64,000 nt of DNA from Thermoplasmatota archaeon (GCA_040751795.1 JBFMHR010000001.1:337357-401356); one strand, 5' to 3'. Counted from the stretch's first letter, positions 48,171 to 64,000 are shown. The notes: generated by a model from the letters alone, not told the origin. Numbers and translations: made by a program.

Positions 48171-50276
48171 TCAGCCCGCCTTGTCATCGCCCTTGCCCCT
48201 GAGCCGCATGTACATGAGGGCCATCACGGCCGCCACGGCCAGCGTCCCCACGAGGCCCGCGATGAGCAGGACATTCATCGTGTCGGAGGCGTCGAGGTCG
48301 TCCTCTGCCGCCGCGAGCTGCTCCTCGACCTCGGCGAGCTCCTGCTCGGCCCCGGCCAGGTCAGCCTCGGCCGAGGTCATGTTAGCCACGGCCGCGGCGA
48401 GGTCGAACTGCAGCGAGAGGATGTCCGCCTCCGAGTCGTCGAGCTGCGCCTCGACTTCGGCCAGGTCCGCGAGGGCGTCGGCGAGCTCGTCCTCCGCCGC
48501 CAGCAGGGCCGCCTCGGCAGCCGCCAGCTGGGCCTCGAGGGACGCGACGTCGTCCTCCGCCGCGTCCAGCTGCGCCTGCAGGTCGGCCAGGTCGGCCAGC
48601 GCCGCGTCCAGGTCCGCCTGGAGCGCATCGATCTGCGCCAGGGCGTCGGCGAGCTCCGCCTCGACCGCCGCCAGGGGGTCGACGTAGGTTACGGTGACGG
48701 AGGCGTTCGCGGAGTTGCTCCAGAGGTCGACCGCCGTCGCGGTGACGGTGTTCTCCCCCTCCTCCAGGAGGACAACGCACGAGAAGGAGCCGTCGGCCTC
48801 GACCACCGCAGACATCCCGTTGACCGTGAGGGACGCGCCCGGCTCGGCCGTGCCCGAGACCGTGATCGCCGGGACATCGACAGTCGTCCCGTCGGCCGGG
48901 CTCGATATGGACACATGGGGCGGGGTCGTGTCAGGGACGGTGTACATGTTCGCCCAGACGTTGTACCTGAGGCCGTCGAACTGCAGCCACGCAGCGAAGA
49001 CGTTCCCGGACCCGTCGAGCGCCGCGTCCACGCCGACCGACGACTGGTTGCCGGTGGTGGAGGCCAGTTCCATGGGCATCCAGCCCTCGCCCGCCAGGTA
49101 CCGGCCCGAGCAGATGTTCCTGCGCTCGCCGTCCCACTGCTCCCACAGGGCGGTGCCGTTGCCCGTCCCGTCGAAGACGACCCTGGGGAGCGTCGCGAAG
49201 TCGTCGCTGTCCTCGACCGTCCCCGCGGTCCCCCAGCCCTCTCCGTGGACGTACAGGTTCGACCATATGCTTGCGATGCCGGCGTCGGCCTGCTGCCATA
49301 CGGCCAGGGCGTTCCCCGCGCCGTCGCAGGCCACGCGGACGCCGCTGGCGTCATAGGAGTCGTCGTCCTCGAGGATCTCGGCCTCCCCCCAGCCCTCGCC
49401 GACGGTGTACCGGTTGGACCAGATGCTGTAGAGGCCGTCTCCGAGGTCGTACTGGTACCAGACGGCGGTCGCGTCGCCCGAGGGACCGACGGCCACCTTG
49501 GGCTCCGACACGTCGCCGGTGGCGTTGCCGCCGATAGTCACGGCGGTGCCCCAGCCCTCCCCCGGGACGTACCTGTTGGCGGAGACGTTGACGGCGGAGA
49601 CGCCGACCTGGCACCACACCGCGACGACGCAGCCCGCGCCGTCCACGGCGACGTCCAGGGAGTACGCGCTCTCGACGTACTGCTCGGCCTCCTCCTCGAC
49701 CCCCCACCCGTCGCCGGCCACGTACCTGTTGGACCAGATGTGGCCGTAGCCGTCCTTGAACTGGGACCATACGGCGGTGGCGTTGCCCGACCCGTCGACC
49801 ACCACCTGCGCGAGGCCCGCCTCGTCCGCCTGGCCCTCTATGAGCTCGGCGGCCCCCCAGCCCTCGCCGGGGACGTAGCGGCTCGCCCACACGCTGCTGA
49901 CCGATGAGGTGTACCTCTGCCAGACGGCGATGGCGTTGCCGGACGCGTCGAATGCCACCCTGGGGTTGTAGCAGTTGTCGGTCCCGACGGAGTCGATCGA
50001 CGCGGCCCCGGTCCAGCCCGCGCCGGCGACGTACCTGTTGGCGAACACGTTGTTCCTGTACCCGTCGTGCTGGTCCCAGACGGCGAACGCGTTCCCCGAG
50101 GCGTCAGCCGCTATGAACGGGTAATCGGCCTCCGCCGAGTCCAGGGACTCGATCATGACGGAGTCGCCCCAGCCCGGGACCGGGGCGGCGGCCTGGGCCT
50201 CCTGGGGGACGCTGCCCACGGACAACAGACATGCGAACACTGACACACAGTACAGGGCTGTAAGGGACCTCCTCAT
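48171..50276 (-). CDS. large surface protein: signal peptide, eight ~45-aa tandem repeats, Ig-like region, long Ala/Asp/Leu coiled coil, C-terminal TM anchor
   Basis: Repeats of (D[AG]SGNAxAVWxQ...IWSNRYVxGEGWG). Start MRRSLTALY is at 50276. Confidence 0.65.
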   Translation of the reverse strand: MRRSLTALYCVSVFACLLSVGSVPQEAQAAAPVPGWGDSVMIESLDSAEADYPFIAADASGNAFAVWDQHDGYRNNVFANRYVAGAGWTGAASIDSVGTDNCYNPRVAFDASGNAIAVWQRYTSSVSSVWASRYVPGEGWGAAELIEGQADEAGLAQVVVDGSGNATAVWSQFKDGYGHIWSNRYVAGDGWGVEEEAEQYVESAYSLDVAVDGAGCVVAVWCQVGVSAVNVSANRYVPGEGWGTAVTIGGNATGDVSEPKVAVGPSGDATAVWYQYDLGDGLYSIWSNRYTVGEGWGEAEILEDDDSYDASGVRVACDGAGNALAVWQQADAGIASIWSNLYVHGEGWGTAGTVEDSDDFATLPRVVFDGTGNGTALWEQWDGERRNICSGRYLAGEGWMPMELASTTGNQSSVGVDAALDGSGNVFAAWLQFDGLRYNVWANMYTVPDTTPPHVSISSPADGTTVDVPAITVSGTAEPGASLTVNGMSAVVEADGSFSCVVLLEEGENTVTATAVDLWSNSANASVTVTYVDPLAAVEAELADALAQIDALQADLDAALADLADLQAQLDAAEDDVASLEAQLAAAEAALLAAEDELADALADLAEVEAQLDDSEADILSLQFDLAAAVANMTSAEADLAGAEQELAEVEEQLAAAEDDLDASDTMNVLLIAGLVGTLAVAAVMALMYMRLRGKGDDKAG

Positions 50277-50590
50277 CAGAACCACTCCGGGCACGGTCGG
50301 CGGGCCAACGGGACCCGATGACAATCTGGCCTGATGAACCTTTTCGCCTCGGTCCGCGTCGCGCGGGAGGGAGGGGGAGCATGGGGGACCCCGCATCCAG
50401 GCCCTCTGGGCGCACCCTGGCCAGGAGCCAGCTATGCTGGCTCCCGCGCATGCGGCCCCGACGCGCGCTGAGCCAGATACCGCTCCCCGGAGAGCCAGCA
50501 TTAGCAAACGCTTATATATCGTAAATCATGATACATATCTGGGTCATGCCTGGACGGTGTGGCCAGAAGGACACACGGAGGGATGAACGA

Positions 50591-50824
50591 ATGGTAATGG
50601 AGCCCATAAGCGTAGAGAAGGCCATGGAGATTGCCAAGAAGAAGGGAATCAAGCCCGGCCGCGTAAAGGGCACGAAGGGTGTGCAGTTCACCAAGGGAAG
50701 GAACCCGAGACTCGAGACCATCGACTGGGAGGAGTTCAAGGGGACCCTCGCCAAGAGGAAGCTGTCGGTCTTCGAGAGCGGCGGCTGGATGAAGATAATG
50801 AAGGCCAAGAAGGGCAAGAAGTAG
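50591..50824 (+). CDS. small basic protein (~77 aa), paralog of 56464-56712
   Basis: AKKKGIKPGRVKGTKGVQF...IDWEEF...GGWMKIMKAKKG. AT-rich upstream region. Confidence 0.5.
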   Translation: MVMEPISVEKAMEIAKKKGIKPGRVKGTKGVQFTKGRNPRLETIDWEEFKGTLAKRKLSVFESGGWMKIMKAKKGKK

Positions 50825-52412: not shown

Positions 52413-53072
52413 CTAGACCCGCTCGCCCCTATGGTACCCGCACCGCGGGCACATGAGGGAGCCGCGGGGCCATATCATGCCGCACCTGGGACAGGCCACG
52501 CCGAAGCCGCAGCCCTCGCAGAAGCACGTCCCCCGGGCCATCGTCCTGCCGCAGTTGGGGCACTTCTCCGCCGCGGGCGCCCTCGGCTGCGGATCACCCT
52601 CGACGTAGCCCCTCCCTCCGCAGCCGGGGCACACCATGGAGCCCGAGGGGCCGGGGAGGACGCCGAGGCCGCGGCAGGCGGGGCACTTCTCGGTGCCCAG
52701 GCACCTGGGGCACTTGCCGGTGCCCCCGCAGAAGGGGCAGGCGCTCAAGGAGCCCCCTTTGCCCTTCCCCTTGCAGGCGTAGCAGTAGCCGTTGACGCAG
52801 TAGGAGACGGAGCCGTAGGCGAGGATGGATGTGAAGTCGTTGTGGCCGTGTGCGTTTGAGGAGACGCTCCATGTGCACTTTCCCGAGCCGCCGCAGGCTT
52901 TGCAGACGTCGATCCTCCCGAAGCCGTCGCAGACCTTGCACTCGGTCCTGCCGCGGCCTATTATGACCTGGGTGCCGCAGTACATGCAGTGGGCCTTGTC
53001 GAGGTCGGCGGGGAACCTGAGGCTGGAGCCGCACTTGGGGCAGACGGCTGCTATGAGCTCGACCTCGGCCAT
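52413..53072 (-). CDS. cysteine-rich protein with zinc ribbons and DnaJ-type CxxCxGxG repeats
   Basis: Start MAEVELIAAVCPKCG. About 13 CxxC pairs, several as CxxCxGxGK (CKVCDGFG, CKACGGSG, CPFCGGTG, CPGCGGRG). Confidence 0.55.
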   Translation of the reverse strand: MAEVELIAAVCPKCGSSLRFPADLDKAHCMYCGTQVIIGRGRTECKVCDGFGRIDVCKACGGSGKCTWSVSSNAHGHNDFTSILAYGSVSYCVNGYCYACKGKGKGGSLSACPFCGGTGKCPRCLGTEKCPACRGLGVLPGPSGSMVCPGCGGRGYVEGDPQPRAPAAEKCPNCGRTMARGTCFCEGCGFGVACPRCGMIWPRGSLMCPRCGYHRGERV

Positions 53073-53225
53073 CCCCTTCACCCTCAGTTGGGGCGGGATT
53101 GGCGGGACGGTATTATATGGTTTCACGGGGGAGTCCACCCTGCCCTGACGGGAGGGGTGAGGAGAAGGAGGCCGGACGGAAGGGTTATTTATACGGCGAC
53201 AATCATGGGCCCTCGCAACCATCGG

Positions 53226-53310
53226 GCAGGGATAGCCAAGCCTGGCCAACGGCGATAGATTCAGGGTCTATTCGCGAAGGCGTCCGCCGGTTCAAATCCG
53301 GCTCCCTGCA
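53226..53310 (+). tRNA. tRNA-Leu(CAG): tRNA-Leu (anticodon CAG), class II with long variable arm, CCA not encoded
   Basis: Hand-folded: acceptor GCAGGGA/TCCCTGC, D arm GCC-AAGCCTGGCCAAC-GGC, anticodon stem ATAGA/TCTAT with loop TTCAGGG, variable stem CGC-GAAG-GCG, T arm GCCGG-TTCAAAT-CCGGC. Confidence 0.9.
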
Positions 53311-53370
53311 CATCGCGACATCTGGCTATTTTCAAATCAGAGGGTTTTTGTCTGCTGGCACCCCCCCTGG

Positions 53371-54570
53371 CTACGGCTTTTCCGCGAACGCTTCCTCGAG
53401 CTCCCGGAAGGCGTCTTCGGACCGTATCCGCGCGTAGTAGAGTTCGGTCGTTCTCGTCGTTCTGTGCCTCAGCGCCTTGGACACAGACTCGATCGACGCG
53501 CCCCGGTCCTTGCACATCTGCCCGAAGGTCGCTCGCAGATATTGCACCCGGAAGGGTATCCCCGCGTGCTTCTGCGCATCATCCTTCATGCTGCCCCACA
53601 TGCCGTCGGTCCAATAATCTACTCGGCCGTCCCTGTAGATCCGGGGCACAAGGGGCTCACATTCGCCCACGCCGTTCTCAGTCAGGTACTTCGTCCTCGC
53701 CTTGAGGAAGTCGAGCACCGTCTGTCGGGCGGGCTGCAGGATCGGCGCTGTGCCTGCGGAGGCATAGCGCGTCTCTCCCTTCGGGTGGCTCACGAGGACT
53801 CTCCACTTGGAGATGTCTATGTCCTGCAGTCGGGCCTTGCGCAGCTCAGACCGTCTGAGCCCTGTGTACGCGTACATCGCGACGGCGAAGCGGGCCACCT
53901 CGCCGTCCCAGCCGGGCATGTTCGCCAACTTGGCCCGTAGTTCCTCCACAGTGGTCTGCTCCAGGGTCCTGATCTCCGGGGAGACCTTCTGAGGGAACCG
54001 GACGTAGTGTAGCGCTCGCATCCGGTTCATGACCGGGTTCTCGCATATCAACAGCATCTCGGCCAGGAATGCAAGGTAGTTCGCCTGCGTTGCTGGCCTC
54101 AAGCCGATTCCGGTCTTGGTCTTGCGGTCCTTCATCCACTGGAGGAATGCTTCGATGTCGGCCTGAGTCATCTTCCTCGGGTTGATGGTCGACACCTTGC
54201 CCTTCTTCCTGAGCGCCTTGAACGCGTCTCCGATGACCTTCAGGCCCCTCGTGATGGTCCTGTGGGTCGATGCCGCGTAATAGGGCCGTACGGCCTCTAG
54301 GAAGGCGTTGGCGCAGGGGTTGAACGGGTTGCGCCCACCCACAGACCTCGCCCTCCTCGGACGGCCTCTTCTCGTTCTGCGCGGGGGGTTTTGCTCCGAG
54401 CGGTTATTGGTTCGGCTGCTCTTGCTGTTGGCATCCGGCACCGCTCCGGAGGCGAGTTGTCTACCACCATGTGGTAGTATCCTCTCCTCAAGAACGGTAT
54501 TCCTCTCCGGAGCCGTTAATGCTTCGCCCCGGGCGACTCCCATGTGGGAGTCGGACACCTTCTCCTCCAT
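53371..54570 (-). CDS. tyrosine-type site-specific integrase
   Basis: C-terminal catalytic region with R...LRHRTTRTTELYYAR (HxxxR...Y) and an N-terminal SAM-like/core-binding domain. Confidence 0.85.
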   Translation of the reverse strand: MEEKVSDSHMGVARGEALTAPERNTVLEERILPHGGRQLASGAVPDANSKSSRTNNRSEQNPPRRTRRGRPRRARSVGGRNPFNPCANAFLEAVRPYYAASTHRTITRGLKVIGDAFKALRKKGKVSTINPRKMTQADIEAFLQWMKDRKTKTGIGLRPATQANYLAFLAEMLLICENPVMNRMRALHYVRFPQKVSPEIRTLEQTTVEELRAKLANMPGWDGEVARFAVAMYAYTGLRRSELRKARLQDIDISKWRVLVSHPKGETRYASAGTAPILQPARQTVLDFLKARTKYLTENGVGECEPLVPRIYRDGRVDYWTDGMWGSMKDDAQKHAGIPFRVQYLRATFGQMCKDRGASIESVSKALRHRTTRTTELYYARIRSEDAFRELEEAFAEKP

Positions 54571-54636
54571 CTCTCAACCCCCCCGCCGCAAAGTGGGGCC
54601 GACCTCGGTCGGCCCGGTTTTCTATGGTTTTGCGGC

Positions 54637-54816
54637 TTACTCTTCGTCCTCTTCCTCCCGATCGTCGCTCTCAGACTCGTCCGAGGAGTAGTACTCCTCG
54701 AGGTAGTCCAGCAGGATGTGCATCGCCAATTCCTGCGTCGTGAGCCCTTGCTCTTTGGCGATGGCGTTCAGCTGTCGAGCCGTCTCCCCTCTTGCCTCAA
54801 TCACCTGGGCATCCAC
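54637..54816 (-). CDS. small acidic-tailed protein (59 aa, possible RHH/excisionase-like regulator)
   Basis: GTG start. Reads MDAQVIEARGETARQLNAIAKEQGLTTQELAMHILLDYLEEYYSSDESESDDREEEDEE. Just upstream of the integrase on the same strand. Confidence 0.3.
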   Translation of the reverse strand: MDAQVIEARGETARQLNAIAKEQGLTTQELAMHILLDYLEEYYSSDESESDDREEEDEE

Positions 54817-54970
54817 TTCTTCACCTCCGCATCAGGTCGGCCGGGAGACCCCCCCCCCAGCCGCCTAATGTCTACCATTGTATACATTATACTGACTCAT
54901 AAATCTTTTCATGCCATGCATATAGGCCACAACATTGATATCCGGCTGTAGACATTCAACCACGATACCC

Positions 54971-55672
54971 ATGGCGAAGAAGAATCCCCCCGCGTCCACT
55001 GGCAGCCTTGAGAAGTCCAAGGAGTTGCTCGTCCTGGCATACTTCCTATTCACCGGCAACAAACCCGCATCTGCCGACAGGGTGGTCGAGTACTGGTCCC
55101 CTGAGGGAACCGGGGTGAAGGAGGAGGTGCTTCCCGAAGGCGTCGGACCAGACGAACGGAGTCTCTCGAGAGCAGGTGCGGCCAAGATCTGCAAGCGCCT
55201 AGTCAGTGAAGGACTTCTATTCAAGAGGGAGCGACTGGGATACAGGAACAAGATGGTCAACGAGTACTACCTCCCATCTGGTTCGGAATTCCTGATGGTC
55301 GGCGAGAGGATCATGAAGACCTACCCGATGCTGGCACTCAGAAGCGACTACGGGAAGGAATGGCTCCGAACCAGTGCCATTCCCAGACTGTGCAGAACCC
55401 TCAGAATCGACCTGAAACCCTGGCTAGGTGACATTGAATGGGTGGCGGGGAGATCACCGACTGTGTTCACCATGATGACTGACGATACGATTAAACATGG
55501 CTCCGCTGCACGCCTCGAATCCGAGAAAGAGAGGATCTCCGCATTTCTTGAATTCCTCATATGCGCGGTGAAGGTGGACATGATGTCGGGAGCAAAGGGG
55601 CTGCTGCTTGACGGAGAGACCTCGCGAGAAGTCACAGACCGGCTCAGAGATACAATCAAAGGATTCACCTGA
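54971..55672 (+). CDS. hypothetical protein (island cargo)
   Basis: 234 aa, no motif recognised. Lower GC. Confidence 0.45.
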   Translation: MAKKNPPASTGSLEKSKELLVLAYFLFTGNKPASADRVVEYWSPEGTGVKEEVLPEGVGPDERSLSRAGAAKICKRLVSEGLLFKRERLGYRNKMVNEYYLPSGSEFLMVGERIMKTYPMLALRSDYGKEWLRTSAIPRLCRTLRIDLKPWLGDIEWVAGRSPTVFTMMTDDTIKHGSAARLESEKERISAFLEFLICAVKVDMMSGAKGLLLDGETSREVTDRLRDTIKGFT

Positions 55673-55833
55673 TGTTGTTGACTGGGCGTGCCATCTGCTT
55701 CATCGAGACTGATACCGAGCAGGGCATGTTGATGAGACTCTCCTTGACGGAGACCCGCTTCCGAGGTGTATTCTTGGTGAGATGAGAATCATATTCTGAC
55801 GTAGCCGTTTGAGTCCGATTCGCTGATATCTTC

Positions 55834-56361
55834 ATGGTGACGCACGCGAATGCGCGAATTATGATTAACTGGAAATTCTACCCGTTGGCCGAGAGGATTC
55901 CTCCCCATCTCGTGAAGGTCATCGAGGTTCTCGAGGGCAAGTCGGATCACATCTCTTCATCCGATCATGAGCTGAACAGCAACGATGTACTCGCGACGTT
56001 GAGAGAAGATCTCGAACACCTGGGATACATAGTCGAGAGAGGATCCAAAGACAGGATCAGAATGCCCGTCCTATACGGAGAGAACGGAAAGGTGGAGAAA
56101 TCCTTCGACGTCGATGCCTACGATGAGTCGACCGGAACAGTCATCGAGGTAGAGGCCGGAAGGGGAGTGACGAATCATCAGTTCCTGAAGGATTTCTTCG
56201 AAGCATGTACGATGCATGATGTGGAGTACTGCACGATTGCCGTTCGGAACACCTACCTACGGCGCTCGGATTTCAAAGCTGTCGCCTCGTTCATGGATGC
56301 CCTGTACGCGAGCGGCAGAATCTCACTGCCGCTGAAGGGTCTACTCGTGATCGGATATTGA
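55834..56361 (+). CDS. hypothetical protein, possible PD-(D/E)xK-type nuclease
   Basis: FDVDAYDESTGTVIEVEAGRG...K resembles a D...ExE/K nuclease core. Weak. Confidence 0.4.
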   Translation: MVTHANARIMINWKFYPLAERIPPHLVKVIEVLEGKSDHISSSDHELNSNDVLATLREDLEHLGYIVERGSKDRIRMPVLYGENGKVEKSFDVDAYDESTGTVIEVEAGRGVTNHQFLKDFFEACTMHDVEYCTIAVRNTYLRRSDFKAVASFMDALYASGRISLPLKGLLVIGY

Positions 56362-56463
56362 ACATGTTCTAAGACAGGTCCACCGTCGTCGAGAATATCT
56401 GCTATTTTCACGCTGCCCGGGCAACCCTCATATAAGTGAATAGCCGATTCTCGAGATGGTGAA

Positions 56464-56712
56464 ATGATGACCGTGGGACGAGATCTTCGGATGTACTCAT
56501 CGGACGAAGTCAGGAAGTGGGCAAAGAAGAAGAAACTGAGCCCCGGAAAGGTAAGAGGCACAAAGGATGGAATCCAATTCGTTGCGATCGGTGGCAGCGA
56601 CAAGATCGAGGAAATTGAGTGGGAACTCTTCGATGCGGTGCTCAAGAAGAAGCGACTCGCTGTCTATGGCACGAGAGAGGGTTGGATGCGCATAATGAGG
56701 AGAAAGACCTAG
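56464..56712 (+). CDS. small basic protein (82 aa), island-borne paralog of 50591-50824
   Basis: AKKKKLSPGKVRGTKDGIQF...IEWELF...EGWMRIMRRKT. Confidence 0.5.
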   Translation: MMTVGRDLRMYSSDEVRKWAKKKKLSPGKVRGTKDGIQFVAIGGSDKIEEIEWELFDAVLKKKRLAVYGTREGWMRIMRRKT

Positions 56713-56755
56713 AATCGTGGACTGAAGAAGTCTAATATGCCCTCATTGCATTGGG

Positions 56756-58912
56756 ATGTGCAGAATGCCTGTGCCAGCAAGTTCGACAGAGGCGGTCGTT
56801 CAGCAGTCGTTTCCGACAGAGCATGGATCTGTGGAAGGACTTCGTTGTGAGTCTAGGTGCAAGACGCACAAGCACGACCCCTGGGGCAAGTGGCCATCCA
56901 CCACGAAGATCGTGATCCCCATTCTTGCAGAGCACCCCTGTTATGACCGCACCTGGGGCCTGGAACCCAGAGACGGACGCTGGAAGACCAGGCTTGCCGA
57001 CTCCATCGAGCGTCGTAGGAGACGCATCCCGTCTGGAACAAGGGATCGTCAGGAGATCCTCGATGCTATCGACAGAGTGACCCTCAGGACGTATCATGCA
57101 GCTAGAGTACTGCAGACCCATTTCAACAACCCGTCGCATGAGAACTACCGGGATCCATTTCTCGAGACAATGTACATAATGCTCACTTGGAGGACCAGGA
57201 TCCCCGACGCCAGAGCCCGTTTGAGGGACATAATGGACTCCTTCAAGGGCCCGCGTGCGCTCCTCAGCGAAGATGGACTCCTGCTCCTCAGGAACATCAT
57301 CAAGAGGTCAGGTTTCTCTGGAAAGAGACCTGAGATGATTACGGAACTGACGAGACGATTCATCGAAGAGTTCCCTGACGGCGACACGCAGGTGATGAGA
57401 GCCTGGAAGGACGACGAGATCATCCGGTTCCTGACAAGCATGCCAGGGATCGGTTTGAAGTCTGCCCTTTGCGTGATGATGTACTCCCTAGATAGAGATC
57501 GATTTCCGATAGACACCCACGTTGGACGTGTGCTCAAGAGAACTCAGATGCTCAGAGAGCTTGTCACGGTGGGACAGGACACGGATCACAAGACCGTCCA
57601 GGCAACGGCAGAATTCGCGGCGCCTCCGAGCGCGAGGATGGCGATTCATGCAGGATTGGTGTCACTCGGTCAGACGATATGCAGAGTCGGTACACCGTCT
57701 TGCGGCAAGTGCCCGATCAGACATGTCTGTGAGTATTACAGAATGATGACCATTGAGAACACTGAGGGTGCGCTCTACAGTCACGTCGACCTATTCTGCG
57801 GGGCCGGAGGCTTCTCTGAGGGGTTCTCGAAGGAGAGGTTCAGGACGGTTCTCGCTGTTGACTTCGACCAAGACGCGTGCGAGACGTTCAGAATGAACCA
57901 TCCGGGGATTCCCGAAGAGAACGTTGTGTGCGAGGATCTGGCCCGACGCCAAGTGAAGACATTCATCAAGAATCACATCAGAGGACGCGAACAACTCAGA
58001 CCGGGAGCTGTCGACGTTCTCACAGCAGGAATTCCTTGTCAGGGATTCAGCAAGGCTGGCTACAGGTCACGACCCGGTCTGAGATATGAACCACTCAAAG
58101 ATCCAAGGAATCTACTCTACAGGCGCGTGCTTCTCTGGATTCGGGATCTCAAACCGAGATACATCGTTCTGGAGAACGTCCCCGAGATCAGATCAGCAGG
58201 TGGCAAAGAGGCTAGCATTCTCGACACGATCTGCCGTTCCCTGGGCAAGCTTGGGTACCGGGTAGACAGCGGCGTCGTCAATGCTCGAGACCATCGGGTC
58301 CCGCAGACGAGGTACCGCATGATTGTCATTGCATCCCATCAGTCGGTTCCCGAGGTGAAGATAGAGGATCTAGGAGGACACGGAAAGAAGGGATCGACCC
58401 TCGGAAGAGCGATAGGAGATCTCCCTCCGCTGACCGACAGTGGGAACCCATACTATCTCAACTGGTCTGGCTCAGTCCTGACAGGTCATGTTTCCAGATC
58501 CAACAATGATGATGACCTAGAGATATTCGAGGCCCTTGAACCGGGGGAGAAGTACCAAGACTTCGCGAAGAGAAGAAAGGATATACTGCAGGCCAGGCGA
58601 AGACGCGGGAAGCATGCAGTCTACGGTACCAGGAGCTTCGAAGACAAGTACTACAAGCTCGATCCAGATAGTCCATCAAGAACCATCGTCGCCCATCTGC
58701 ACAAGGATGGAAACGGCTACATCCACCCATTCCAAACACGGTCGATCTCAATCCGTGAGGCAATGCGCCTCCAAGGATTCCCCGATGACTACATATTCTG
58801 TGGAAGCGCCACCAGACAGTATATCCAGATCGGAAATGCTGTCCCCCCGCCTCTGGCAAGAGATATCGCGCGCCTCCTAGCCCAGAATCTCAACTCCGCA
58901 TGGAGAGTGTGA
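56756..58912 (+). CDS. fusion protein: HhH-GPD DNA glycosylase with [4Fe-4S] cluster loop (N-terminal) plus DNA (cytosine-5)-methyltransferase (C-terminal)
   Basis: N-terminal HhH (MPGIGLKSA), catalytic Asp (IDTHVGRV), and Cx6Cx2Cx5C (CRVGTPSCGKCPIRHVC). C-terminal m5C MTase motifs: I FCGAGGFSEGF, IV GIPCQGFS, VI ENVPE, VIII QTRYR. Confidence 0.85.
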   Translation: MCRMPVPASSTEAVVQQSFPTEHGSVEGLRCESRCKTHKHDPWGKWPSTTKIVIPILAEHPCYDRTWGLEPRDGRWKTRLADSIERRRRRIPSGTRDRQEILDAIDRVTLRTYHAARVLQTHFNNPSHENYRDPFLETMYIMLTWRTRIPDARARLRDIMDSFKGPRALLSEDGLLLLRNIIKRSGFSGKRPEMITELTRRFIEEFPDGDTQVMRAWKDDEIIRFLTSMPGIGLKSALCVMMYSLDRDRFPIDTHVGRVLKRTQMLRELVTVGQDTDHKTVQATAEFAAPPSARMAIHAGLVSLGQTICRVGTPSCGKCPIRHVCEYYRMMTIENTEGALYSHVDLFCGAGGFSEGFSKERFRTVLAVDFDQDACETFRMNHPGIPEENVVCEDLARRQVKTFIKNHIRGREQLRPGAVDVLTAGIPCQGFSKAGYRSRPGLRYEPLKDPRNLLYRRVLLWIRDLKPRYIVLENVPEIRSAGGKEASILDTICRSLGKLGYRVDSGVVNARDHRVPQTRYRMIVIASHQSVPEVKIEDLGGHGKKGSTLGRAIGDLPPLTDSGNPYYLNWSGSVLTGHVSRSNNDDDLEIFEALEPGEKYQDFAKRRKDILQARRRRGKHAVYGTRSFEDKYYKLDPDSPSRTIVAHLHKDGNGYIHPFQTRSISIREAMRLQGFPDDYIFCGSATRQYIQIGNAVPPPLARDIARLLAQNLNSAWRV

Positions 58913-59091
58913 CCGTCAAGCGATGATGGATTGACTGCATGATTCGTTCTCCGTCATAACACTGTTGTTTTACTCACTGAAATCAATATATCAGACTAGG
59001 CGATACGGGAGATGGTCGAACATGAAGACCGGCGGAGTGGTCTGGTCACCATACCTGCTACGCGGTCCGTGGGAGCCAATGAAGGGGGAAT

Positions 59092-60603
59092 ATGGCAGAG
59101 TACGAGGAGATACCTCCGAGAGCAGATGCGATGGTCGCGTCAATGCGAGCTATCGGATACGACCTCTCAATGGCCATCGCAGATATCATAGACAATAGCA
59201 TCTTCGCCGGAGCCAAGAACATACAAGTCGATTTTGACTGGGCAGATGGGAGCCCCTGGATACGAATCACAGATGACGGAAGGGGCATGAGTGACGAAGA
59301 GCTGCGCGAGGCCATGCGCCTTGGAGGCAAGGGCCCGAATGACATCAGAGATCCTGAGGATCTTGGAAGGTTCGGTCTCGGACTCAAGACTGCCTCATTC
59401 TCACAGTGCCGGATCCTCACCGTCAGCACCAAGGTAGCAGGCGGGAGAACATCGACAAGGTGCTGGGACCTTGACGTTATAGAACACACAAAGAAGTGGC
59501 AGCTCAGGCTCCTGCCACCAGAAGACGCGGAGCCACTGCTAGACGACCTGCTCGAAGTGGATAGCGGTACCGTTGTCCTCTGGCAGAGGCTCGACAGGGT
59601 CATCGATGGGCCCGACGATATCACCGATGGTGAGACAATCTTCCGGAAGAAGTTCATCGATGTTGGCAGACATCTCGAGATGGTCTTCCATAGATACCTG
59701 AGCGGGCCTGGTAAAATGGATATCTCGATAGGGAGGACCCCTCTGAGGCCATGGGATCCGTACCTTCTCACCAACCAATTCACACAGGAACTCTCGACCG
59801 AGAAGTACGAAGATGGCTCCATAAGGATCATTCCATACGTCCTTCCGCATGTGTCTAAACGGACTGCAACCGAGACGGCAGCCGGGGCCGGAGTGAAGGG
59901 TTGGAACGCACAGCAGGGATTCTACGTATACAGGAATCGTCGGATGATAATCTCAGGAGGCTACCTCGACTTCGACATAAAGCCCGAGGAACACTACAAA
60001 CTTGCCAGAATCATGGTAGACCTGAAGAATAACATGGATAGCGAATGGAGGATCGACGTGCGCAAGGCAGTGGCCATCCCTCCAGACCGGCTCAGATCAC
60101 AGCTCGAGAAGGTAGCCAGAGCAGCAAGAGAAGAGGCGGTCAAGGTCTACAGGGCAAGAACTGGCCGAGGTAGGAAAGCTGCGCGAACGAACACGCAGGA
60201 AGTATGGATCAAAAGGCGAAGAGGTGACAAAATCATCTACGAGATCAACCGTGAGAACGAGGCAACCAAGAGGATCCTTGCGGAGATCTCTCCGCCGGAG
60301 CGTTGGGTGAAGAAACTCTTCGGGACAATCGAACGAACAGTACCACACAGGGAAATCATCATAGACTCGTGTGACAACGAGGACTGTCATGTGGATCTGC
60401 CTCCCGAGACAAGCCCACCAGATCGAGGTCTCATCGACATGTGCATCGAGATCTACGAAGAGATGAAAGCGAACGGGAGATCTCATGAGGAAGCGTCGGA
60501 ATATGTTCTTTCTATAGAGCCATTCAATACACATCCATCATTCAGAGCGACTCTGGACAGTCTCGCAGAGGAGGCAAGCTTACGAACACAAAGAACGAGA
60601 TGA
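59092..60603 (+). CDS. GHKL-superfamily ATPase (MORC / MutL-like, HATPase_c_3 type)
   Basis: Bergerat-fold motifs: N box DIIDNS, G1 DDGRGM, G2 GRFGLGLK. Confidence 0.8.
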   Translation: MAEYEEIPPRADAMVASMRAIGYDLSMAIADIIDNSIFAGAKNIQVDFDWADGSPWIRITDDGRGMSDEELREAMRLGGKGPNDIRDPEDLGRFGLGLKTASFSQCRILTVSTKVAGGRTSTRCWDLDVIEHTKKWQLRLLPPEDAEPLLDDLLEVDSGTVVLWQRLDRVIDGPDDITDGETIFRKKFIDVGRHLEMVFHRYLSGPGKMDISIGRTPLRPWDPYLLTNQFTQELSTEKYEDGSIRIIPYVLPHVSKRTATETAAGAGVKGWNAQQGFYVYRNRRMIISGGYLDFDIKPEEHYKLARIMVDLKNNMDSEWRIDVRKAVAIPPDRLRSQLEKVARAAREEAVKVYRARTGRGRKAARTNTQEVWIKRRRGDKIIYEINRENEATKRILAEISPPERWVKKLFGTIERTVPHREIIIDSCDNEDCHVDLPPETSPPDRGLIDMCIEIYEEMKANGRSHEEASEYVLSIEPFNTHPSFRATLDSLAEEASLRTQRTR

Positions 60604-63404
60604 TCATTGGCATGTCCCATGCCTGGTTCAGGGACAAGAATGTCGGACAGCAGGAGATCAGGGACTTCATCGTTAAGATGAGGGGTCTCTTCCCAGATCA
60701 TGACTTGGACGAGGAATCACTTTTCAGGCAACTCGAGTCGATCCACTCCGTCAGGATTGGACGAGAGACCACACTTGACGACAAGAGGGACCACGTTGAA
60801 TGGTTGAACCCGTCGACGGGAGAGGGACTGAAACGAGAGATTGACTGGCACTTCTGGGGCCATTACAGTGACTACCTCTCGGTTGCCAAGGGATGGCCAA
60901 GAAACATGGTTCACAGTATCGATAGTCTATCTAGCCAGGTCTTGTCTAGACTTGAGGATCCTCAGAGACCCGGCCCATGGGACCGCCGAGGGATGGTCAT
61001 GGGGAGTGTCCAATCCGGGAAGACCGCCAATTACACTGCACTCATCACGAAGGCCGCCGACGCAGGCTACAAGTTCATCGTAGTCCTCGCAGGCGTGCAC
61101 GACAGTCTGAGAAGTCAGACCCAGACGAGACTGAACGAGGAATTCCTCGGCTACGACATTGACAGAGTGAGGAAGCTCACGGGAGGCGAACGACGGATCG
61201 GCGTCCGCGAGATGTTCCCGAATCACAATCCAGTCTACACGCTTACGAGCAGTGACCAGAAGGGCGACTTCAGCAAGGTGGTTGCGTCACAGAGCGGCAT
61301 CTTTCCGAGCGTTGATGGCCACCCGATAATTCTCGTCATAAAGAAGAACGTCAGCATCCTTCGCAATCTCTACACATGGATACCTTCGGTCATCAGCCAG
61401 ACAGACACCACAGGGCGGAAACTCATAAGGGACATCCCACTGCTACTCATCGACGACGAATGTGATTTCGCGTCAATCAACACGAAGCAGCCGGAGAAGG
61501 ACGAGAACGGGAAGATAATCGAAGAATGGGATCCCACTGCCATCAACCGGCTCATACGGCAGCTGCTGCGCCTCTTCGACAAGTGTTCATACGTAGGCTA
61601 CACCGCAACACCCTATGCCAATGTCTTCATCCACATTGATGATACTCACCCCCGCTATGGAGAAGACCTCTTCCCGAGAAGCTTCATCGTCAGCCTGCCG
61701 CAGCCAAGCAACTACATGGGCCCGGAGAAGGTATTCGGCTTCGATGAGGCCGACCGGGCCGTGACTGCATCCGAACCACTGCCCCTTGTGCGCCTTGTCG
61801 ACGATCAATCTGCGTGCATACCCGAGGGACACGACAAGGAGCTCATCGTGGAGGATCTGCCTCACAGCCTCAAGCTCGCCATGAGATACTTCCTGCTCAG
61901 TTGTGCGGAGCGACGACTCCGCGCTGAGGGAGTGCCACACAATTCGATGCTGATCCATGTCACGAGATTCACAGCGGTTCAACAGCAGATCAAGGATCTT
62001 GTCGACAGAGAACTGAAAGAGCTGGCATCAAGAATAATGAGCAGAGACCCGCTCGCGGACTTCCGCGAGATATGGGATAATGACTTCATCCCGACCTCAC
62101 GTGAGATGACAGATCGTGGATACAGAGACTCATCGACCCACGACTGGGATGACATCGAGAAGAGCCTCGGAGTCATCGCGAGAGTCATGAATGTCAGATT
62201 GATAAACGGAACCGTGAGAGATGCGCTTGACTACAAGGACGCCGAGATCGCAGCCACCAGCCGTAGAAGAAGTGGCGAGGAGGTCCCATGGGAGGAGAGA
62301 GGCCTGAGCACCATCGTAATTGGAGGCGACAAACTCTCAAGAGGACTGACACTCGAGGGACTCACGGTGAGCTACTACCTCAGAGCTTCAACCCTGTACG
62401 ACACACTGATGCAGATGGGAAGGTGGTTTGGATACAGGAGAGGATACTCCGATCTCTGCAGGATATTCACGACGGAGGAACTGGTGTCATCATACCAACA
62501 CATCGCGCTAGCTACAAGGGAACTCAGGGAGGATATCGAGTACATGTCGGAGCTCAGACTCACCCCGAGTGAGTTCGGCCTCAAGGTCAGGAGCCATCCT
62601 GGTCGACTAGCCGTGACATCATTGGGGAAGTCGAGGAACAAACAGAAAGTCTCCCTCTCCTACGAGGGACATATATCCGAGACGGTTGCTTTCAACCCGA
62701 GGAATTCACGAACCAACGTCCAGTCTCTCACCAGACTGATATCCGACATTGACAGGAAACCTGACTTCGAACATGACACGAAGAGGAGATACCACTGGAC
62801 GGATGTTCCTCCCGAGAGAGTGCTTTCATTCCTCGGCAGGTACAAGAGTCACTCGGTGGGGACGAGACTCGTCGATCCCAGGGCTATTGCAGGGTACATC
62901 GAGAAGCAGAACCTCCAAGGTGAGCTCGTCACATGGAATGTCGTGGTCGTCTCGAAGGAAGTTGCCAGCGGACCCGATGACGAGGACGCGACGCACTTTC
63001 TCTCAGTCGGAGGCTATGACGTGACCTGCGTGACGAGGAAAGCACTGAAGGTGAGTGCTGACAAGATATCGATCCGCAGGCTCGTCAGTCCAGCCGACGA
63101 GGCGCTCGATCTGTCCCGAGATGAAATCGAGAAGGCGAGGATCATCGACGGGGCGAAGTCAGGGAAGCAGCCCTCCGAGATTGGCCTCCCATCTGGGCCG
63201 TCGATCAGACAGGCGAGACCAAAGGAACGAGGTCTGCTGCTAGTCTATGTCATCTCTGGAAGAGATGATGCGGGTACAATCTACGGCGACGAGGGGCACG
63301 AGGTTGTGGGTTTCGCCGTCAGTTTCCCCAAGAGCATGACCGCGGAGCCAATTGAGTACTGGGTCAACCCTGTATATCAGGAAGAGGACCAGCACTACAC
63401 CTGA
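60600..63404 (+). CDS. Z1-domain P-loop NTPase protein
   Basis: 934 aa with Walker A GSVQSGKTANYTA and Walker B-like LLLIDDECD. Architecture matches the Z1 family found in predicted restriction systems. ATGA overlap with the GHKL gene. Confidence 0.75.
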   Translation: MIIGMSHAWFRDKNVGQQEIRDFIVKMRGLFPDHDLDEESLFRQLESIHSVRIGRETTLDDKRDHVEWLNPSTGEGLKREIDWHFWGHYSDYLSVAKGWPRNMVHSIDSLSSQVLSRLEDPQRPGPWDRRGMVMGSVQSGKTANYTALITKAADAGYKFIVVLAGVHDSLRSQTQTRLNEEFLGYDIDRVRKLTGGERRIGVREMFPNHNPVYTLTSSDQKGDFSKVVASQSGIFPSVDGHPIILVIKKNVSILRNLYTWIPSVISQTDTTGRKLIRDIPLLLIDDECDFASINTKQPEKDENGKIIEEWDPTAINRLIRQLLRLFDKCSYVGYTATPYANVFIHIDDTHPRYGEDLFPRSFIVSLPQPSNYMGPEKVFGFDEADRAVTASEPLPLVRLVDDQSACIPEGHDKELIVEDLPHSLKLAMRYFLLSCAERRLRAEGVPHNSMLIHVTRFTAVQQQIKDLVDRELKELASRIMSRDPLADFREIWDNDFIPTSREMTDRGYRDSSTHDWDDIEKSLGVIARVMNVRLINGTVRDALDYKDAEIAATSRRRSGEEVPWEERGLSTIVIGGDKLSRGLTLEGLTVSYYLRASTLYDTLMQMGRWFGYRRGYSDLCRIFTTEELVSSYQHIALATRELREDIEYMSELRLTPSEFGLKVRSHPGRLAVTSLGKSRNKQKVSLSYEGHISETVAFNPRNSRTNVQSLTRLISDIDRKPDFEHDTKRRYHWTDVPPERVLSFLGRYKSHSVGTRLVDPRAIAGYIEKQNLQGELVTWNVVVVSKEVASGPDDEDATHFLSVGGYDVTCVTRKALKVSADKISIRRLVSPADEALDLSRDEIEKARIIDGAKSGKQPSEIGLPSGPSIRQARPKERGLLLVYVISGRDDAGTIYGDEGHEVVGFAVSFPKSMTAEPIEYWVNPVYQEEDQHYT

Positions 63405-63408
63405 TGGG

Positions 63409-64000
63409 GTGGCGGAAACGTTGCGTGATCTCGAATCAATCTGGAAGGAACTTGAGGGTCGATATGCCGGGGAAGATGGGGTCTATCGAAGACTCGATCT
63501 CGCACACGAAACAGGAATAAGAATGGCGGTACTCCATCCTGGTCGGACGTGGGCCATCTTGGTCGAAGTATCTCCAGAGGATGTCACCTCACTGATTCCA
63601 CCTCGATGGCGTGGCATGGGGGTGAGCGTGCTGCCACACACGGGCCCGGTGCCGTCCATGAAACACATCTGCCTCTATGTGGAGGCGTTGGAGCATAGGC
63701 CAGTATTCACCGCCTTGTGTACCGACATAATCAGGACCCTTGAATCGTCTTCCGTCGCGCAACGCATGGAAAATCTCCAACAGTGTTTTCTCCGCTGGTC
63801 AAGATTCTTCGAGAGGTGGAACCAGGAGGGAATGACGCTTGAAAGACAACGTGGACTGCTGGGTGAGCTCGAATTTCTCGACATGCTTCTGAGGCGTCAG
63901 ATACCGATCTTCACATCAGTGTCCTCGTGGAAAGGGTGCGATGGAGGCGTACACGATTTTGCGCTCGGAAGGAATGCTATCGAAGTCAAGACCACGGTGA
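63409..64000 (+). CDS. PD-(D/E)xK nuclease-like protein (possibly AIPR-type), 3'-partial
   Basis: ORF runs off the window. GTG at 63409 (or ATG at 63523). The C-terminal part visible reads ...GCDGGVHDFALGRNAIEVKTTV (D...EVK motif). Confidence 0.5.
   Translation, partial: MAETLRDLESIWKELEGRYAGEDGVYRRLDLAHETGIRMAVLHPGRTWAILVEVSPEDVTSLIPPRWRGMGVSVLPHTGPVPSMKHICLYVEALEHRPVFTALCTDIIRTLESSSVAQRMENLQQCFLRWSRFFERWNQEGMTLERQRGLLGELEFLDMLLRRQIPIFTSVSSWKGCDGGVHDFALGRNAIEVKTTV

Follow-up and report, generated by a model that had tools for sequence, protein, structure and literature searches.

The stretch of DNA analysed here (the window, 64,000 nucleotides) comes from the MAG of a Thermoplasmatota archaeon (GCA_040751795.1, JBFMHR010000001.1:337357-401356). 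It carries a gene that joins an endonuclease III (EndoIII)-type DNA glycosylase to a C5-cytosine (m5C) methyltransferase, followed by a restriction module. The features of the locus, with positions counted from the first nucleotide of the window, are:

53226..53311, + strand: tRNA-Leu(CAG), likely island integration site (ARAGORN)
53371..54570, - strand: tyrosine recombinase (integrase; Pfam Phage_integrase, E=2.2e-8, and a weak SAM-like N-terminal domain)
55834..56361, + strand: orf175, upstream of the fusion gene, 70% identical to the syntenic ORF of the closest relative (locus L017)
56464..56712, + strand: orf82, small basic protein, 61-73% identical to ORFs at the same position in loci L017, L018, L019 and L084
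56756..58912, + strand: glycosylase-methyltransferase fusion gene, intact ORF (alternative start 56765)
56873..57115, + strand: N-terminal extension, residues ~40-120, conserved, with helices at 71-86 and 98-122
57116..57763, + strand: EndoIII-family HhH-GPD [4Fe-4S] glycosylase domain, residues ~121-336 (phmmer, NCBIfam, Foldseek)
57431..57514, + strand: HhH motif with Lys235, to Asp253 (alignment with Nth and Mig)
57458-57460, + strand: Lys235 codon (Nth K120 position)
57512-57514, + strand: catalytic Asp253 codon (Nth D138 position)
57680..57730, + strand: iron-sulfur cluster loop, C309-x6-C316-x2-C319-x5-C325 (read directly from the sequence)
57776..58906, + strand: C5-cytosine DNA methyltransferase domain, residues 341-717 (Pfam, TIGR00675, PADLOC, PDB)
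59092..60603, + strand: MzaB-like GHKL (MORC/MutL-type) ATPase (Pfam HATPase_c_3, E=2.3e-31; PADLOC MzaB, E=5e-86)
60600..63404, + strand: MzaC-like Z1-domain helicase-like protein (Pfam Z1, E=1.9e-72; PADLOC MzaC, E=5.7e-183)
63409..64000, + strand: DUF4420 putative PD-(D/E)XK nuclease, running past the window end (Pfam DUF4420, E=3.9e-31)

The tRNA-Leu gene is taken as the likely integration site because the integrase gene lies immediately downstream of it and the GC content, ~0.66 up to ~54 kb, drops to ~0.54 between there and the end of the window. The system is likely carried on a tRNA-Leu-integrated island of this MAG. Within the restriction module, the genes for the GHKL ATPase and the Z1 protein overlap by 4 bp, and the DUF4420 gene has two candidate starts, a GTG at 63409 and a TTG at 63421. 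These downstream genes resemble the mzaABCDE anti-phage system in matching the MzaB and MzaC profiles and in the presence of DUF4420, with a gene order as found in many related loci. However, the ATPase and the Z1 protein score below the NCBIfam equivalog cutoffs for MzaB (368 bits against 850) and MzaC (698 bits against 1500), and no MzaA-like gene was seen in the module within the window. Judged by these profile scores and the gene content, the module is Mza-like and related to mzaABCDE, not Mza proper. An AIPR gene is expected past the window end, after DUF4420, as predicted from synteny with loci in which AIPR follows DUF4420 (L012, L015, L025, L034, L069 and L098-L116).

The fusion gene is a single stop-free frame of 718 amino acids. 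The NCBI model of the same gene (MEW5747548.1) starts at the ATG at 56765, giving a protein of 715 amino acids that is identical from residue 4. Residues 1 to ~40 are predicted to be disordered and are without conservation. The extension that follows them is conserved at the protein level in L017-L019, its helices are confidently predicted, and several fused homologues align in HMMER from query residues 61-76. Later start codons (GTG at residue 108, ATG at residue 139) were ruled out because residues ~40-120 are conserved at the protein level in close relatives. Identity to the fusion across all 718 residues is 59-62% in three relatives, and the AlphaFold (AF2) model of the full-length protein has a pLDDT of 84.2 and a pTM of 0.84. 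An earlier note on this DNA had described one polypeptide combining a [4Fe-4S] glycosylase of the EndoIII/MutY/Mig superfamily with a complete m5C methyltransferase, followed by a restriction system, and this description holds. All the motifs that it quoted are present, namely GIGLKSA (231-237), IDTHVGRV (252-259), the cluster loop, FCGAGG, PCQ, ENV and QTRYR, and its division into an N-terminal part of ~330 and a C-terminal part of ~390 amino acids stands as a two-domain split, with the boundaries now refined to residues ~121-336 and 341-717.

The methyltransferase domain is readily recognised. It matches Pfam DNA_methylase (PF00145) over residues 342-706 with 198.9 bits (threshold 22, E=1.9e-58), the dcm model TIGR00675 with 167.9 bits (cutoff 100.65) and PADLOC MTase_II with 269 bits, and its PDB matches include DNMT1, M.HaeIII and M.HhaI. 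Motifs I (FCGAGG, residue 347), IV (PCQ, 427), VI (ENV, 473), VIII (QTRYR, 517) and X (GNAVP, 693) are intact, as expected of a complete C5-cytosine methyltransferase.

Of the two Pfam domains that the earlier note expected in a domain search, only DNA_methylase is reported. The N-terminal region is a near miss for HhH-GPD (PF00730, 17.4 bits against a gathering threshold of 26.2). Its membership of the HhH-GPD superfamily is nevertheless settled by phmmer searches of the PDB, by partial matches in NCBIfam and by AlphaFold modelling with Foldseek. A fused homologue (P0011) likewise stays below the PF00730 gathering threshold with 21.7 bits, and two fusions with the reverse domain order (P0103 and P0149) exceed it; the short Pfam HhH-GPD model under-detects this glycosylase clade. 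The best PDB match is Deinococcus radiodurans EndoIII-1 (E=6e-20, residues 121-330), followed by ROS1 (1e-10), E. coli Nth (2e-9) and Mig.MthI (1kea, 5e-7), and weak matches to 3-methyladenine glycosylases occur in both the PDB and the NCBIfam searches. The NCBIfam matches to DR2438-type, nth and mutY models are partial: the domain reaches 71.7 bits for the DR2438-type model (cutoff 400) and falls short of the housekeeping Nth equivalogs (42.2 bits against 211.7 for TIGR01083; 31.8 against 405 for NF007978). By these scores, the domain belongs to a clade distinct from housekeeping Nth.

As the fold search with the whole protein was dominated by methyltransferase matches, the glycosylase domain was modelled separately. 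The resulting AF2 model (pLDDT 90.9) is all-helical and is predicted to have the two-lobed all-alpha fold of a six-helix barrel and a cluster domain. Foldseek aligns it to 4unf and 8a5f with TM scores of 0.75-0.77 (EndoIII-1, 0.77) and, normalised by target, to E. coli EndoIII (2abk) with 0.85 and to Mig (1kea) with 0.81. In sequence alignments, LTSMPGIGLKSA...FPIDTHVGRV matches the corresponding motifs of EndoIII-1, Nth and Mig, so that an HhH-GPD motif with its catalytic Asp is present. Lys235 falls in the column of Nth K120, where Mig has Tyr126, and Asp253 in that of Nth D138. Both residues and the four cysteines (C309, C316, C319 and C325) are invariant in 81 of 81 clade sequences. The ligands of the iron-sulfur loop are complete and binding of a [4Fe-4S] cluster is predicted. 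Because the Schiff-base lysine is retained at the Nth K120 position, the domain is probably a glycosylase/AP-lyase. The description EndoIII/Mig-like used in the earlier note is therefore apt in its first half, given the match to EndoIII-1, and not in its second, as the lysine and the weak similarity to 1kea speak against a Mig-type enzyme.

A wider database survey, proposed in the earlier note, shows that the architecture is not a one-off but recurs in a large family with both domain orders. Word-indexed homologue searches returned nearly only stand-alone proteins, and the fused family was revealed by exhaustive HMMER and metagenome scans. In the HMMER scan, 60 of the best 150 cluster representatives contain both domains. 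The metagenome scan, based on one clade-specific peptide pattern, found at least 514 related loci, of which the best 80, ranked by similarity to the fused query, were analysed. Both domains occupy one stop-free frame in 57 of these 80. Among the unfused loci, an m5C methyltransferase gene lies within 300 bp in 15 and within 3 kb in 2 more. Linkage to a fused or adjacent methyltransferase is thus near-obligate (74/80, 92%), a figure that describes this glycosylase clade and not EndoIII proteins generally. The earlier note had also considered that the ORF might be two genes separated by a stop or frameshift; this is not borne out by the uninterrupted 718-aa frame, and an artefact of this kind is ruled out by the 57 in-frame fusions together with the relatives of ~60% full-length identity. 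The fusion of glycosylase and methyltransferase in one gene is confirmed.

The association also extends beyond the fused proteins. Among eight stand-alone clade members sampled, five have an m5C methyltransferase neighbour (L003, L004, L014, L015 and L016), and this set includes an NgoMIV-type Type II system as well as an unfused version of the Z1 system of the window. The link between clade and methyltransferase holds whichever type of restriction module accompanies it. The plasmid collection gave no match to the clade and the phage collection two weak matches only, so that, in these collections, neither plasmids nor phages carry the clade.

Cytosine methylation is mutagenic, as 5-methylcytosine (5mC) deaminates to T, a cost for which Vsr is the textbook remedy in prokaryotes. 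For comparison, 17 Z1 loci with a methyltransferase were collected from viral contigs; a scan of genome contigs with the Z1 protein yielded two close loci only (including L012), too few for statistics. In the comparison set, Vsr lies beside the methyltransferase in 10 of the 17 loci and the glycosylase in none, and the remaining 7 have no dedicated repair gene, which indicates that a repair partner is not obligatory. Conversely, when queried with the E. coli Vsr protein and with a profile built from 11 Vsr sequences, none of the 80 best glycosylase loci yielded a Vsr (PF03852), and neither did the window between 53 and 64 kb. Among loci sharing the Z1 module, the glycosylase clade and Vsr are mutually exclusive. 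The clade appears to take the position of Vsr, as a functional analogue only. The closest sister module, L012 (74% identity for the MzaB-like protein, 68% for Z1 and 60% for DUF4420), has instead a separate, genuine Mig.MthI homologue (E=5.8e-43 to 1kea) translationally coupled to its methyltransferase, so the clade is complementary to Mig as well as to Vsr.

Taken together, we consider it probable that the fusion protein is the modification subunit of the Mza-like system and that its EndoIII-type domain repairs T:G and U:G mismatches at methylated sites. The restriction system would be m5C-dependent and composed of the GHKL ATPase, Z1, DUF4420 and probably AIPR proteins. The C-terminal domain would methylate cytosine at C5 and thereby mark self DNA, and the N-terminal domain would act as a catalytically competent EndoIII-family glycosylase, probably also with AP-lyase activity. 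It would excise T, and probably also U, wherever deamination of 5mC or cytosine at the methylated sites has left a T:G or U:G mismatch, after which base-excision repair would return C:G, so that the system would spare the recognition sites of its own host from mutation. Through the covalent linkage, the sequence-reading domain of the methylase may bring the glycosylase to those mismatches that lie within the methylase's target context. From genomic context only, namely the exclusivity of Vsr and glycosylase and the Mig.MthI homologue of the sister module, we infer that the substrate is T:G or U:G; repair of these mismatches in the niche of Vsr is the most likely function, with the lyase activity and the covalent targeting as further expected properties. 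The proposal of the earlier note that repair would be physically coupled to the methylase is strongly supported by comparative genomics, to which methyltransferase linkage, Vsr exclusivity and the Mig gene of L012 all contribute.

Several observations, however, argue against a T:G role. EndoIII enzymes, whose substrates are oxidised pyrimidines, are nearer relatives of the domain than Mig is (6e-20 against 5e-7), and Mig, a characterised HhH-GPD T:G glycosylase, is without the catalytic lysine. MBD4, an HhH-GPD T:G glycosylase as well, likewise lacks it. A lysine-bearing T:G enzyme is chemically plausible, because the Mig variant Y126K gains lyase activity (PMC9945173). Furthermore, D. radiodurans EndoIII-1 (DrEndoIII1), the best structural relative, is weak and mostly monofunctional on thymine glycol though it carries the lysine (PMC9268735).

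The same similarities would fit an enzyme that repairs another by-product of the methylase, such as 3-methylcytosine (3mC) or other alkylation, or general damage, such as oxidised pyrimidines or AP sites, with AP-lyase as its main activity. The top matches in sequence and structure are EndoIII enzymes for oxidised pyrimidines, the lysine nucleophile that bifunctional EndoIII enzymes typically carry is invariant here, and the HhH-GPD superfamily includes alkylbase glycosylases, in line with the weak matches to 3-methyladenine glycosylases; in addition, C5-methyltransferases produce 3mC as a side product. General oxidative repair, however, leaves unexplained both the near-obligate linkage to m5C methyltransferases and the complementarity with Vsr and Mig, both T:G-specific, within one system, and a role specific to 3mC accounts for the former but not for the substitution of Vsr or Mig. 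We consider repair of such other lesions unlikely.

Glycosylases can also act as restriction enzymes, for example R.PabI (PMC4081073), and the domain could accordingly be offensive, a glycosylase/lyase serving restriction or anti-phage defence on unmethylated or phage-modified DNA in a combined restriction-modification polypeptide. The closest stand-alone relative (P0001) lies in a defence island where no methyltransferase was detected, and some fusions are flanked by small unannotated genes only. However, in the window and in most loci whose flanks are long enough, a nuclease or effector is already encoded by a gene of its own (DUF4420, AIPR, Mrr_cat, NgoMIV, PDDEXK_1 or HsdR), the domain changes places with Vsr or Mig and not with a nuclease in otherwise identical modules, and its core of ~215 amino acids shows no sign of a sequence-recognition element. 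An offensive role is quite improbable on this evidence.

The significant match to ROS1 raises the question of whether the substrate might be 5mC itself, removed as by ROS1/DEMETER in a writer-eraser enzyme that limits or proofreads methylation; the relationship to a lysine-containing EndoIII of the bifunctional type, as are ROS1 and DME, would agree with this. Yet bacterial EndoIII enzymes match better than ROS1, an eraser joined to a writer would run a futile and dangerous cycle, and the exchange with Vsr or Mig would remain unexplained, so that 5mC excision deserves very little credence. A broader version, in which a sequence-targeted eraser or proofreader of ROS1/DEMETER kin excises 5mC or misplaced methylation in addition to the deamination product, is itself highly improbable; if true, such proteins would combine writer and eraser in one prokaryotic polypeptide, and the eukaryotic 5mC glycosylases might have evolved from them. 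Finally, the domain could be non-catalytic and bind DNA or flip bases for the restriction complex encoded downstream, the alternative raised in the earlier note, or for the methylase. Such a role would suit the DNA-binding HhH motif, the cluster loop and the fixed two-domain arrangement suggested by the pTM of the model, but is barely credible given the invariant Lys235, Asp253 and cysteines, the stand-alone clade genes beside methyltransferases, and an association that follows the methylase independently of the type of restriction module.

As a repair partner for T:G mismatches, the fusion protein would have counterparts in several known systems. It resembles the Dcm-Vsr pair of E. coli K-12, where vsr and the 3' end of dcm overlap, in that a T:G-mismatch repair enzyme is genetically tied to an m5C methylase. 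Vsr, however, is a nickase of the restriction-endonuclease fold that cuts 5' of the T, whereas the domain described here is an HhH-GPD [4Fe-4S] base-excision enzyme that probably has lyase activity too and forms one polypeptide with the methylase. With Mig.MthI it shares the fold and, apparently, the role: in both cases an m5C methylase is served by an HhH-GPD [4Fe-4S] glycosylase. On the Methanothermobacter plasmid pFV1, the genes for the methylase M.MthTI and for Mig.MthI are arranged together but unfused, and Mig has Tyr126 at the position of Lys235. As the sequence relation to Mig is weak compared with that to EndoIII-1, the glycosylase of the fusion belongs to another subfamily, one that would have been co-opted for this task on a separate occasion. 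EndoIII-1 (DR2438; 4unf) shares the HhH lysine, the catalytic Asp, the cluster loop and an N-terminal extension, but is only ~23% identical, and the fusion domain remains far below the NCBIfam equivalog cutoffs. Housekeeping Nth genes differ in that they are not linked to methylases.

The restriction module has been encountered before in related forms. Cytosine methylases and Vsr are frequent in the MORC/paraMORC GHKL-helicase restriction-modification neighbourhoods (Iyer et al. 2008; PMC2292703), and a system of Z1, PD-(D/E)XK and C5-methyltransferase proteins is associated with repair endonucleases (Miller et al. 2022; PMC9523054). Glycosylases, and fusions of them to methylases, go unmentioned in both papers, and no published description of the fusion or of the methyltransferase-linked EndoIII clade was found in the literature searched, although an earlier mention is possible. 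In eukaryotes, coupling of 5mC machinery to T:G repair is described for MBD4, which combines a methyl-CpG-binding domain with an HhH-GPD glycosylase, and for DNMT3A-TDG (PMC4964934; PMC1802599). Both resemble the fusion in physically joining a 5mC reader or writer to a deamination-correcting glycosylase, but the partner in MBD4 is a reader and not a writer, and the association of DNMT3A with TDG is non-covalent. The eukaryotic couplings and the archaeal fusion are evolutionarily independent solutions.

The EndoIII-type clade may thus represent a second, widespread answer to 5mC deamination, rarely found except in partnership with an m5C methylase, and usually as a covalent fusion. If the biochemistry agrees, Vsr, Mig and this clade would form a clean case of non-orthologous displacement within one defence system, and the fusion would be a natural methylase with built-in repair, in which targeting to methylated sites becomes tractable on a single polypeptide, as well as a prokaryotic parallel to the MBD4 and DNMT-TDG couplings. 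Public annotation overlooks this partnership: all examples checked are annotated only as "DNA (cytosine-5-)-methyltransferase" or "endonuclease III". Since the Pfam HhH-GPD model misses the domain, pipelines that annotate restriction-modification and defence systems should be made to recognise it.

As to the small genes of the locus, no family or structure match was obtained for orf82, orf175 or orf245 among Pfam, NCBIfam, PADLOC, PHROGs and the PDB. The protein encoded by orf82, directly upstream of the fusion gene, could possibly be a regulator, and a paralogue of it lies outside the island at 50528-50824 (42% identity, E=1e-13).

The open reading frame at 56756-58912 (+) is one unbroken frame of 718 codons, in agreement with the earlier note, which had proposed a single polypeptide joining an EndoIII/Mig-like glycosylase to a C5-cytosine methyltransferase. 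The same protein is deposited as MEW5747548.1 (NCBI) on a 488,721-bp contig, starting at an ATG three codons downstream, and all motifs quoted in that note were located in it. The C-terminal half is, judged by its sequence, unambiguously a C5-cytosine methyltransferase, with FCGAGG (347), PCQ (427), ENV (473), QTRYR (517) and GNAVP (693), a match to Pfam PF00145 over residues 342-706 (198.9 bits, E=1.9e-58) and a TIGR00675 score above the cutoff. The N-terminal half contains GIGLKSA (231-237), IDTHVGRV (252-259) and the cluster cysteines C309-x6-C316-x2-C319-x5-C325. However, it reaches only 17.4 bits with Pfam HhH-GPD (gathering threshold 26.2), taken literally the outcome that the earlier note had named as counting against its assignment. 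This shortfall is overturned by a phmmer search of all PDB sequences, by NCBIfam and by structure comparison. The phmmer search retrieved Deinococcus radiodurans EndoIII-1 (E=6e-20, spanning residues 121-330), ROS1 (1e-10), Escherichia coli Nth (2e-9), Mig.MthI (5e-7) and MutY (4e-5), while NCBIfam gave partial matches to the DR2438-type glycosylase, nth and mutY models. Along its entire length, the domain as predicted by AlphaFold (pLDDT 90.9) superposes on EndoIII-1 (TM 0.77), on E. coli EndoIII (0.85 by target) and on Mig (1kea, 0.81). The prediction for the complete protein (pLDDT 84.2, pTM 0.84) begins with about 65 disordered residues, followed by confident helices at 71-86 and 98-122, an all-alpha domain up to residue 336 and an alpha/beta methyltransferase at 341-717. 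Residues ~40-120 are conserved at the protein level in three related metagenomic loci (L017-L019), so the annotated start region is credible and doubt is confined to the first ~40 residues.

The glycosylase domain was aligned with E. coli Nth and Mig.MthI; the two reference sequences used have the published residue numbers (K120/D138 and Y126/D144) and agree in length with the PDB chains. Lys235 falls in the column of Nth K120 and Asp253 in that of D138. Both residues, as well as Cys309, Cys316, Cys319 and Cys325, are invariant in 81 of 81 sequences (the window protein and 80 metagenomic loci), and the methylase motifs are kept in most of these loci, so both halves are selected as enzymes. Mig carries a Tyr at the position of Lys235. 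Since the Mig Y126K variant gains lyase activity (PMC9945173), a Lys-bearing T:G enzyme is chemically plausible. On sequence grounds the domain is probably a glycosylase/AP-lyase; DrEndoIII1 has the Lys, yet is mostly monofunctional (PMC9268735).

The fusion recurs widely. When 1.84 billion cluster representatives were scanned exhaustively with HMMER, 60 proteins among the best 150 contained both domains, mostly in the order glycosylase-methylase and about 12 in reverse. Since two domain orders exist, at least two independent fusion events must have occurred; in a neighbour-joining tree, built without support values, fused and stand-alone domains are interleaved. One fused homologue is carried by the cultured Deinococcus metallilatus. 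A metagenome scan with the glycosylase-domain alignment as query yielded at least 514 relatives, of which the best 80 loci were inspected; these had been picked out by a single peptide pattern specific to the clade, and their ranking reflects similarity to a fused query. Both domains lie inside one stop-free frame, our definition of fused, in 57 of these 80; a methylase lies within 300 bp in 15 and within 3 kb in two more, giving linkage in 74. Of the six loci without a methylase, four lie on contigs that end within ~700 bp 3' of the glycosylase match, the side on which the methylase is expected. Across all 718 residues L017-L019 show 59-62% identity with the window protein, and their gene order is that of the window; together with the 57 in-frame loci they argue against two genes artefactually joined.

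In the window the system in its entirety is part of an integrated island (53226-64000, far boundary beyond the window end), in which GC drops from ~0.66 to ~0.54 from ~54 kb through the window end:

53226-53311, tRNA-Leu(CAG)
53371-54570 (-), tyrosine integrase
54935-55672, orf245
55834-56361, orf175
56464-56712, basic 82-aa ORF, immediately upstream of the fusion gene
59092-60603, MzaB-like GHKL ATPase, downstream of the fusion gene
60600-63404, MzaC-like Z1 protein, 4-bp overlap with the ATPase gene
last gene, continuing past the window end, DUF4420 PD-(D/E)XK nuclease

The restriction system noted earlier behind the fusion gene is thus present as these last three genes. Because the MzaB and MzaC scores are under the NCBIfam equivalog cutoffs, the module is termed Mza-like and not Mza proper. 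Its counterparts in the literature are the GHKL/helicase/cytosine-methylase/Vsr neighbourhoods described by Iyer et al. 2008 (PMC2292703) and the system of Z1, PD-(D/E)XK and C5-methylase reported by Miller et al. 2022 (PMC9523054). An AIPR gene is expected just past 64000, since it follows DUF4420 in related loci. Neither orf175 nor orf245 matched any library searched; orf175 may be part of the system, as a syntenic ORF of L017 is 70% identical. The 82-aa ORF, possibly a small regulator, had no match among families, PHROGs and PDB, and keeps its position in L017-L019 and L084 (61-73% identity); a paralogue (50528-50824, 42% identical, E=1e-13) lies outside the island in host-GC DNA. Just beyond the island, host genes encode a 278-aa protein dense in CxxC zinc-ribbon repeats (52413-53249, -) and a 778-aa, apparently surface, protein (48171-50507, -) that contains many repeats of the 'GNA.AVW' type and a coiled-coil region rich in Ala, Asp, Glu and Leu, and that carries a membrane anchor at its C-terminus.

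The restriction partners of the clade vary. Mza-like genes occur in 14 of the 39 loci (among the 80, many on short contigs) with at least 1 kb of flank on both sides of the glycosylase/methylase pair. Other neighbours include a GHKL ATPase with a histidine-kinase-like C-terminus and a receiver protein, a GHKL ATPase with an Mrr-type nuclease, a DISARM DrmE-like protein, a HerA-like ATPase, a PD-(D/E)XK nuclease, Type I HsdR and small unknown ORFs. Five of eight sampled stand-alone members adjoin a methylase: P0002 runs into the first part of the methylase gene downstream of it, P0003 has a methylase as divergent neighbour, P0171 lies two genes off, and P0187 overlaps the methylase 3' end within a Type II system of NgoMIV type. 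P0178, in translational coupling with its methylase, lies opposite a complete HATPase-Z1-DUF4420-AIPR module and is the window's system in unfused form. The association of methylase and glycosylase is therefore independent of restriction chemistry. As an exception to methylase linkage, P0001, the closest stand-alone relative (L001, 7440-8141), sits in a defence island with an LlaJI-type REase, an SNF2 helicase, GmrSD and an AAA_15 ATPase, in which no recognisable methylase was found; the 399-aa ORF overlapping it upstream had no Pfam match.

Within this defence system the clade and known T:G repair enzymes have complementary distributions. More distant relatives of the MzaB-Z1-DUF4420-AIPR module were collected from 21 loci on viral contigs. 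The fetched flank includes a methylase in 17 of them, and Vsr directly adjoins it in 10 of these 17 (two Pfam-confirmed); an HhH-GPD glycosylase occurs in none of the 21. Conversely, no Vsr match was obtained in the 80 glycosylase loci, L001-L016 or the window island, also with an 11-sequence Vsr profile. In the nearest relative of the window module (L012, Methanosaeta sp. UBA533 MAG; MzaB 74%, Z1 68%, DUF4420 60% identity), the gene for a 422-aa methylase overlaps, with its stop, the start of the next gene, and the product of the latter, a 226-aa HhH-GPD protein, has Mig.MthI as best PDB match (E=5.8e-43). Vsr, Mig or the EndoIII clade, separate or fused, thus occupy the same slot. A bacterial locus (L013, Mesotoga sp. 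MAG) gives tblastn identities to the window module identical to those of archaeal L012 (MzaB 73.956%, Z1 68.342%, DUF4420 60.526%); the two appear to hold the same module sequence, through recent inter-domain transfer or a binning artefact.

Methylase tracking, independence of restriction chemistry and complementarity with Vsr and Mig make it likely, by analogy, that the domain repairs 5mC deamination in coupling with the methylase, and these three comparative lines favour the earlier note's reading of methylation-damage repair. The methylase domain would mark host DNA, the glycosylase domain would excise T (or U) opposite G after deamination of the methylated (or target) cytosine and probably nick the AP site, and host base-excision repair would restore C:G. 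Covalent linkage may let the methylase sequence-recognition domain concentrate the glycosylase at at-risk sites. C5-methylases bind mismatches at their target base tightly and can promote deamination, so a built-in repair domain would be especially useful. Against this stands the greater likeness of the domain to oxidised-pyrimidine glycosylases than to Mig; that it instead repairs oxidative damage in general, or some other by-product of the methylase, is nevertheless unlikely. A restriction or anti-phage role is somewhat less probable still, because a separate candidate nuclease usually lies alongside. That the domain is a ROS1-like 5mC eraser seems very improbable, and the non-catalytic DNA-binding module offered as an alternative in the earlier note is the least credible. 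In L027, L030 and L031 another m5C methylase gene, separate from the fusion, comes after it, along with a convergent AIPR gene, so one glycosylase may serve two methylases.

Linking a T:G repair enzyme to an m5C methylase is a classical principle, known from Dcm-Vsr and from Mig.MthI with M.MthTI; in E. coli K-12 vsr overlaps dcm. Eukaryotic parallels are MBD4 and DNMT3A-TDG (PMC4964934, PMC1802599). A distinct and abundant clade of EndoIII type that is dedicated to methylases, usually as a covalent fusion and with the lyase lysine kept, appears to be new; no description of it was found in the literature searched, and an earlier passing mention is possible. Public names are only "DNA (cytosine-5-)-methyltransferase" for the fusions and "endonuclease III" for stand-alone forms. 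Of the glycosylase-first fusions, both that were tested (the window protein; P0011, 21.7 bits) are missed by Pfam HhH-GPD, which probably explains their methylase-only names; the reverse-order fusions P0103 and P0149 pass the threshold. The finding matters because the family is large, because annotation does not show it, and because Vsr, Mig and EndoIII types displace one another cleanly inside one defence system.

Behind many of the fusions comes a protein of ~680-740 aa with an N-terminal MORC-like HATPase_c_3 and a C-terminal HATPase_c domain (L008 2899-6123, with a weak HisKA match; L010 12346-15733; L059 5048-7078); in L008 and L010 there is also a ~380-aa receiver-domain protein behind the fusion. 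In P0028 (1401 aa, Planctomycetota MAG) glycosylase, methylase and this GHKL protein form one polypeptide. The combination looks like a distinct, undescribed m5C-linked module.
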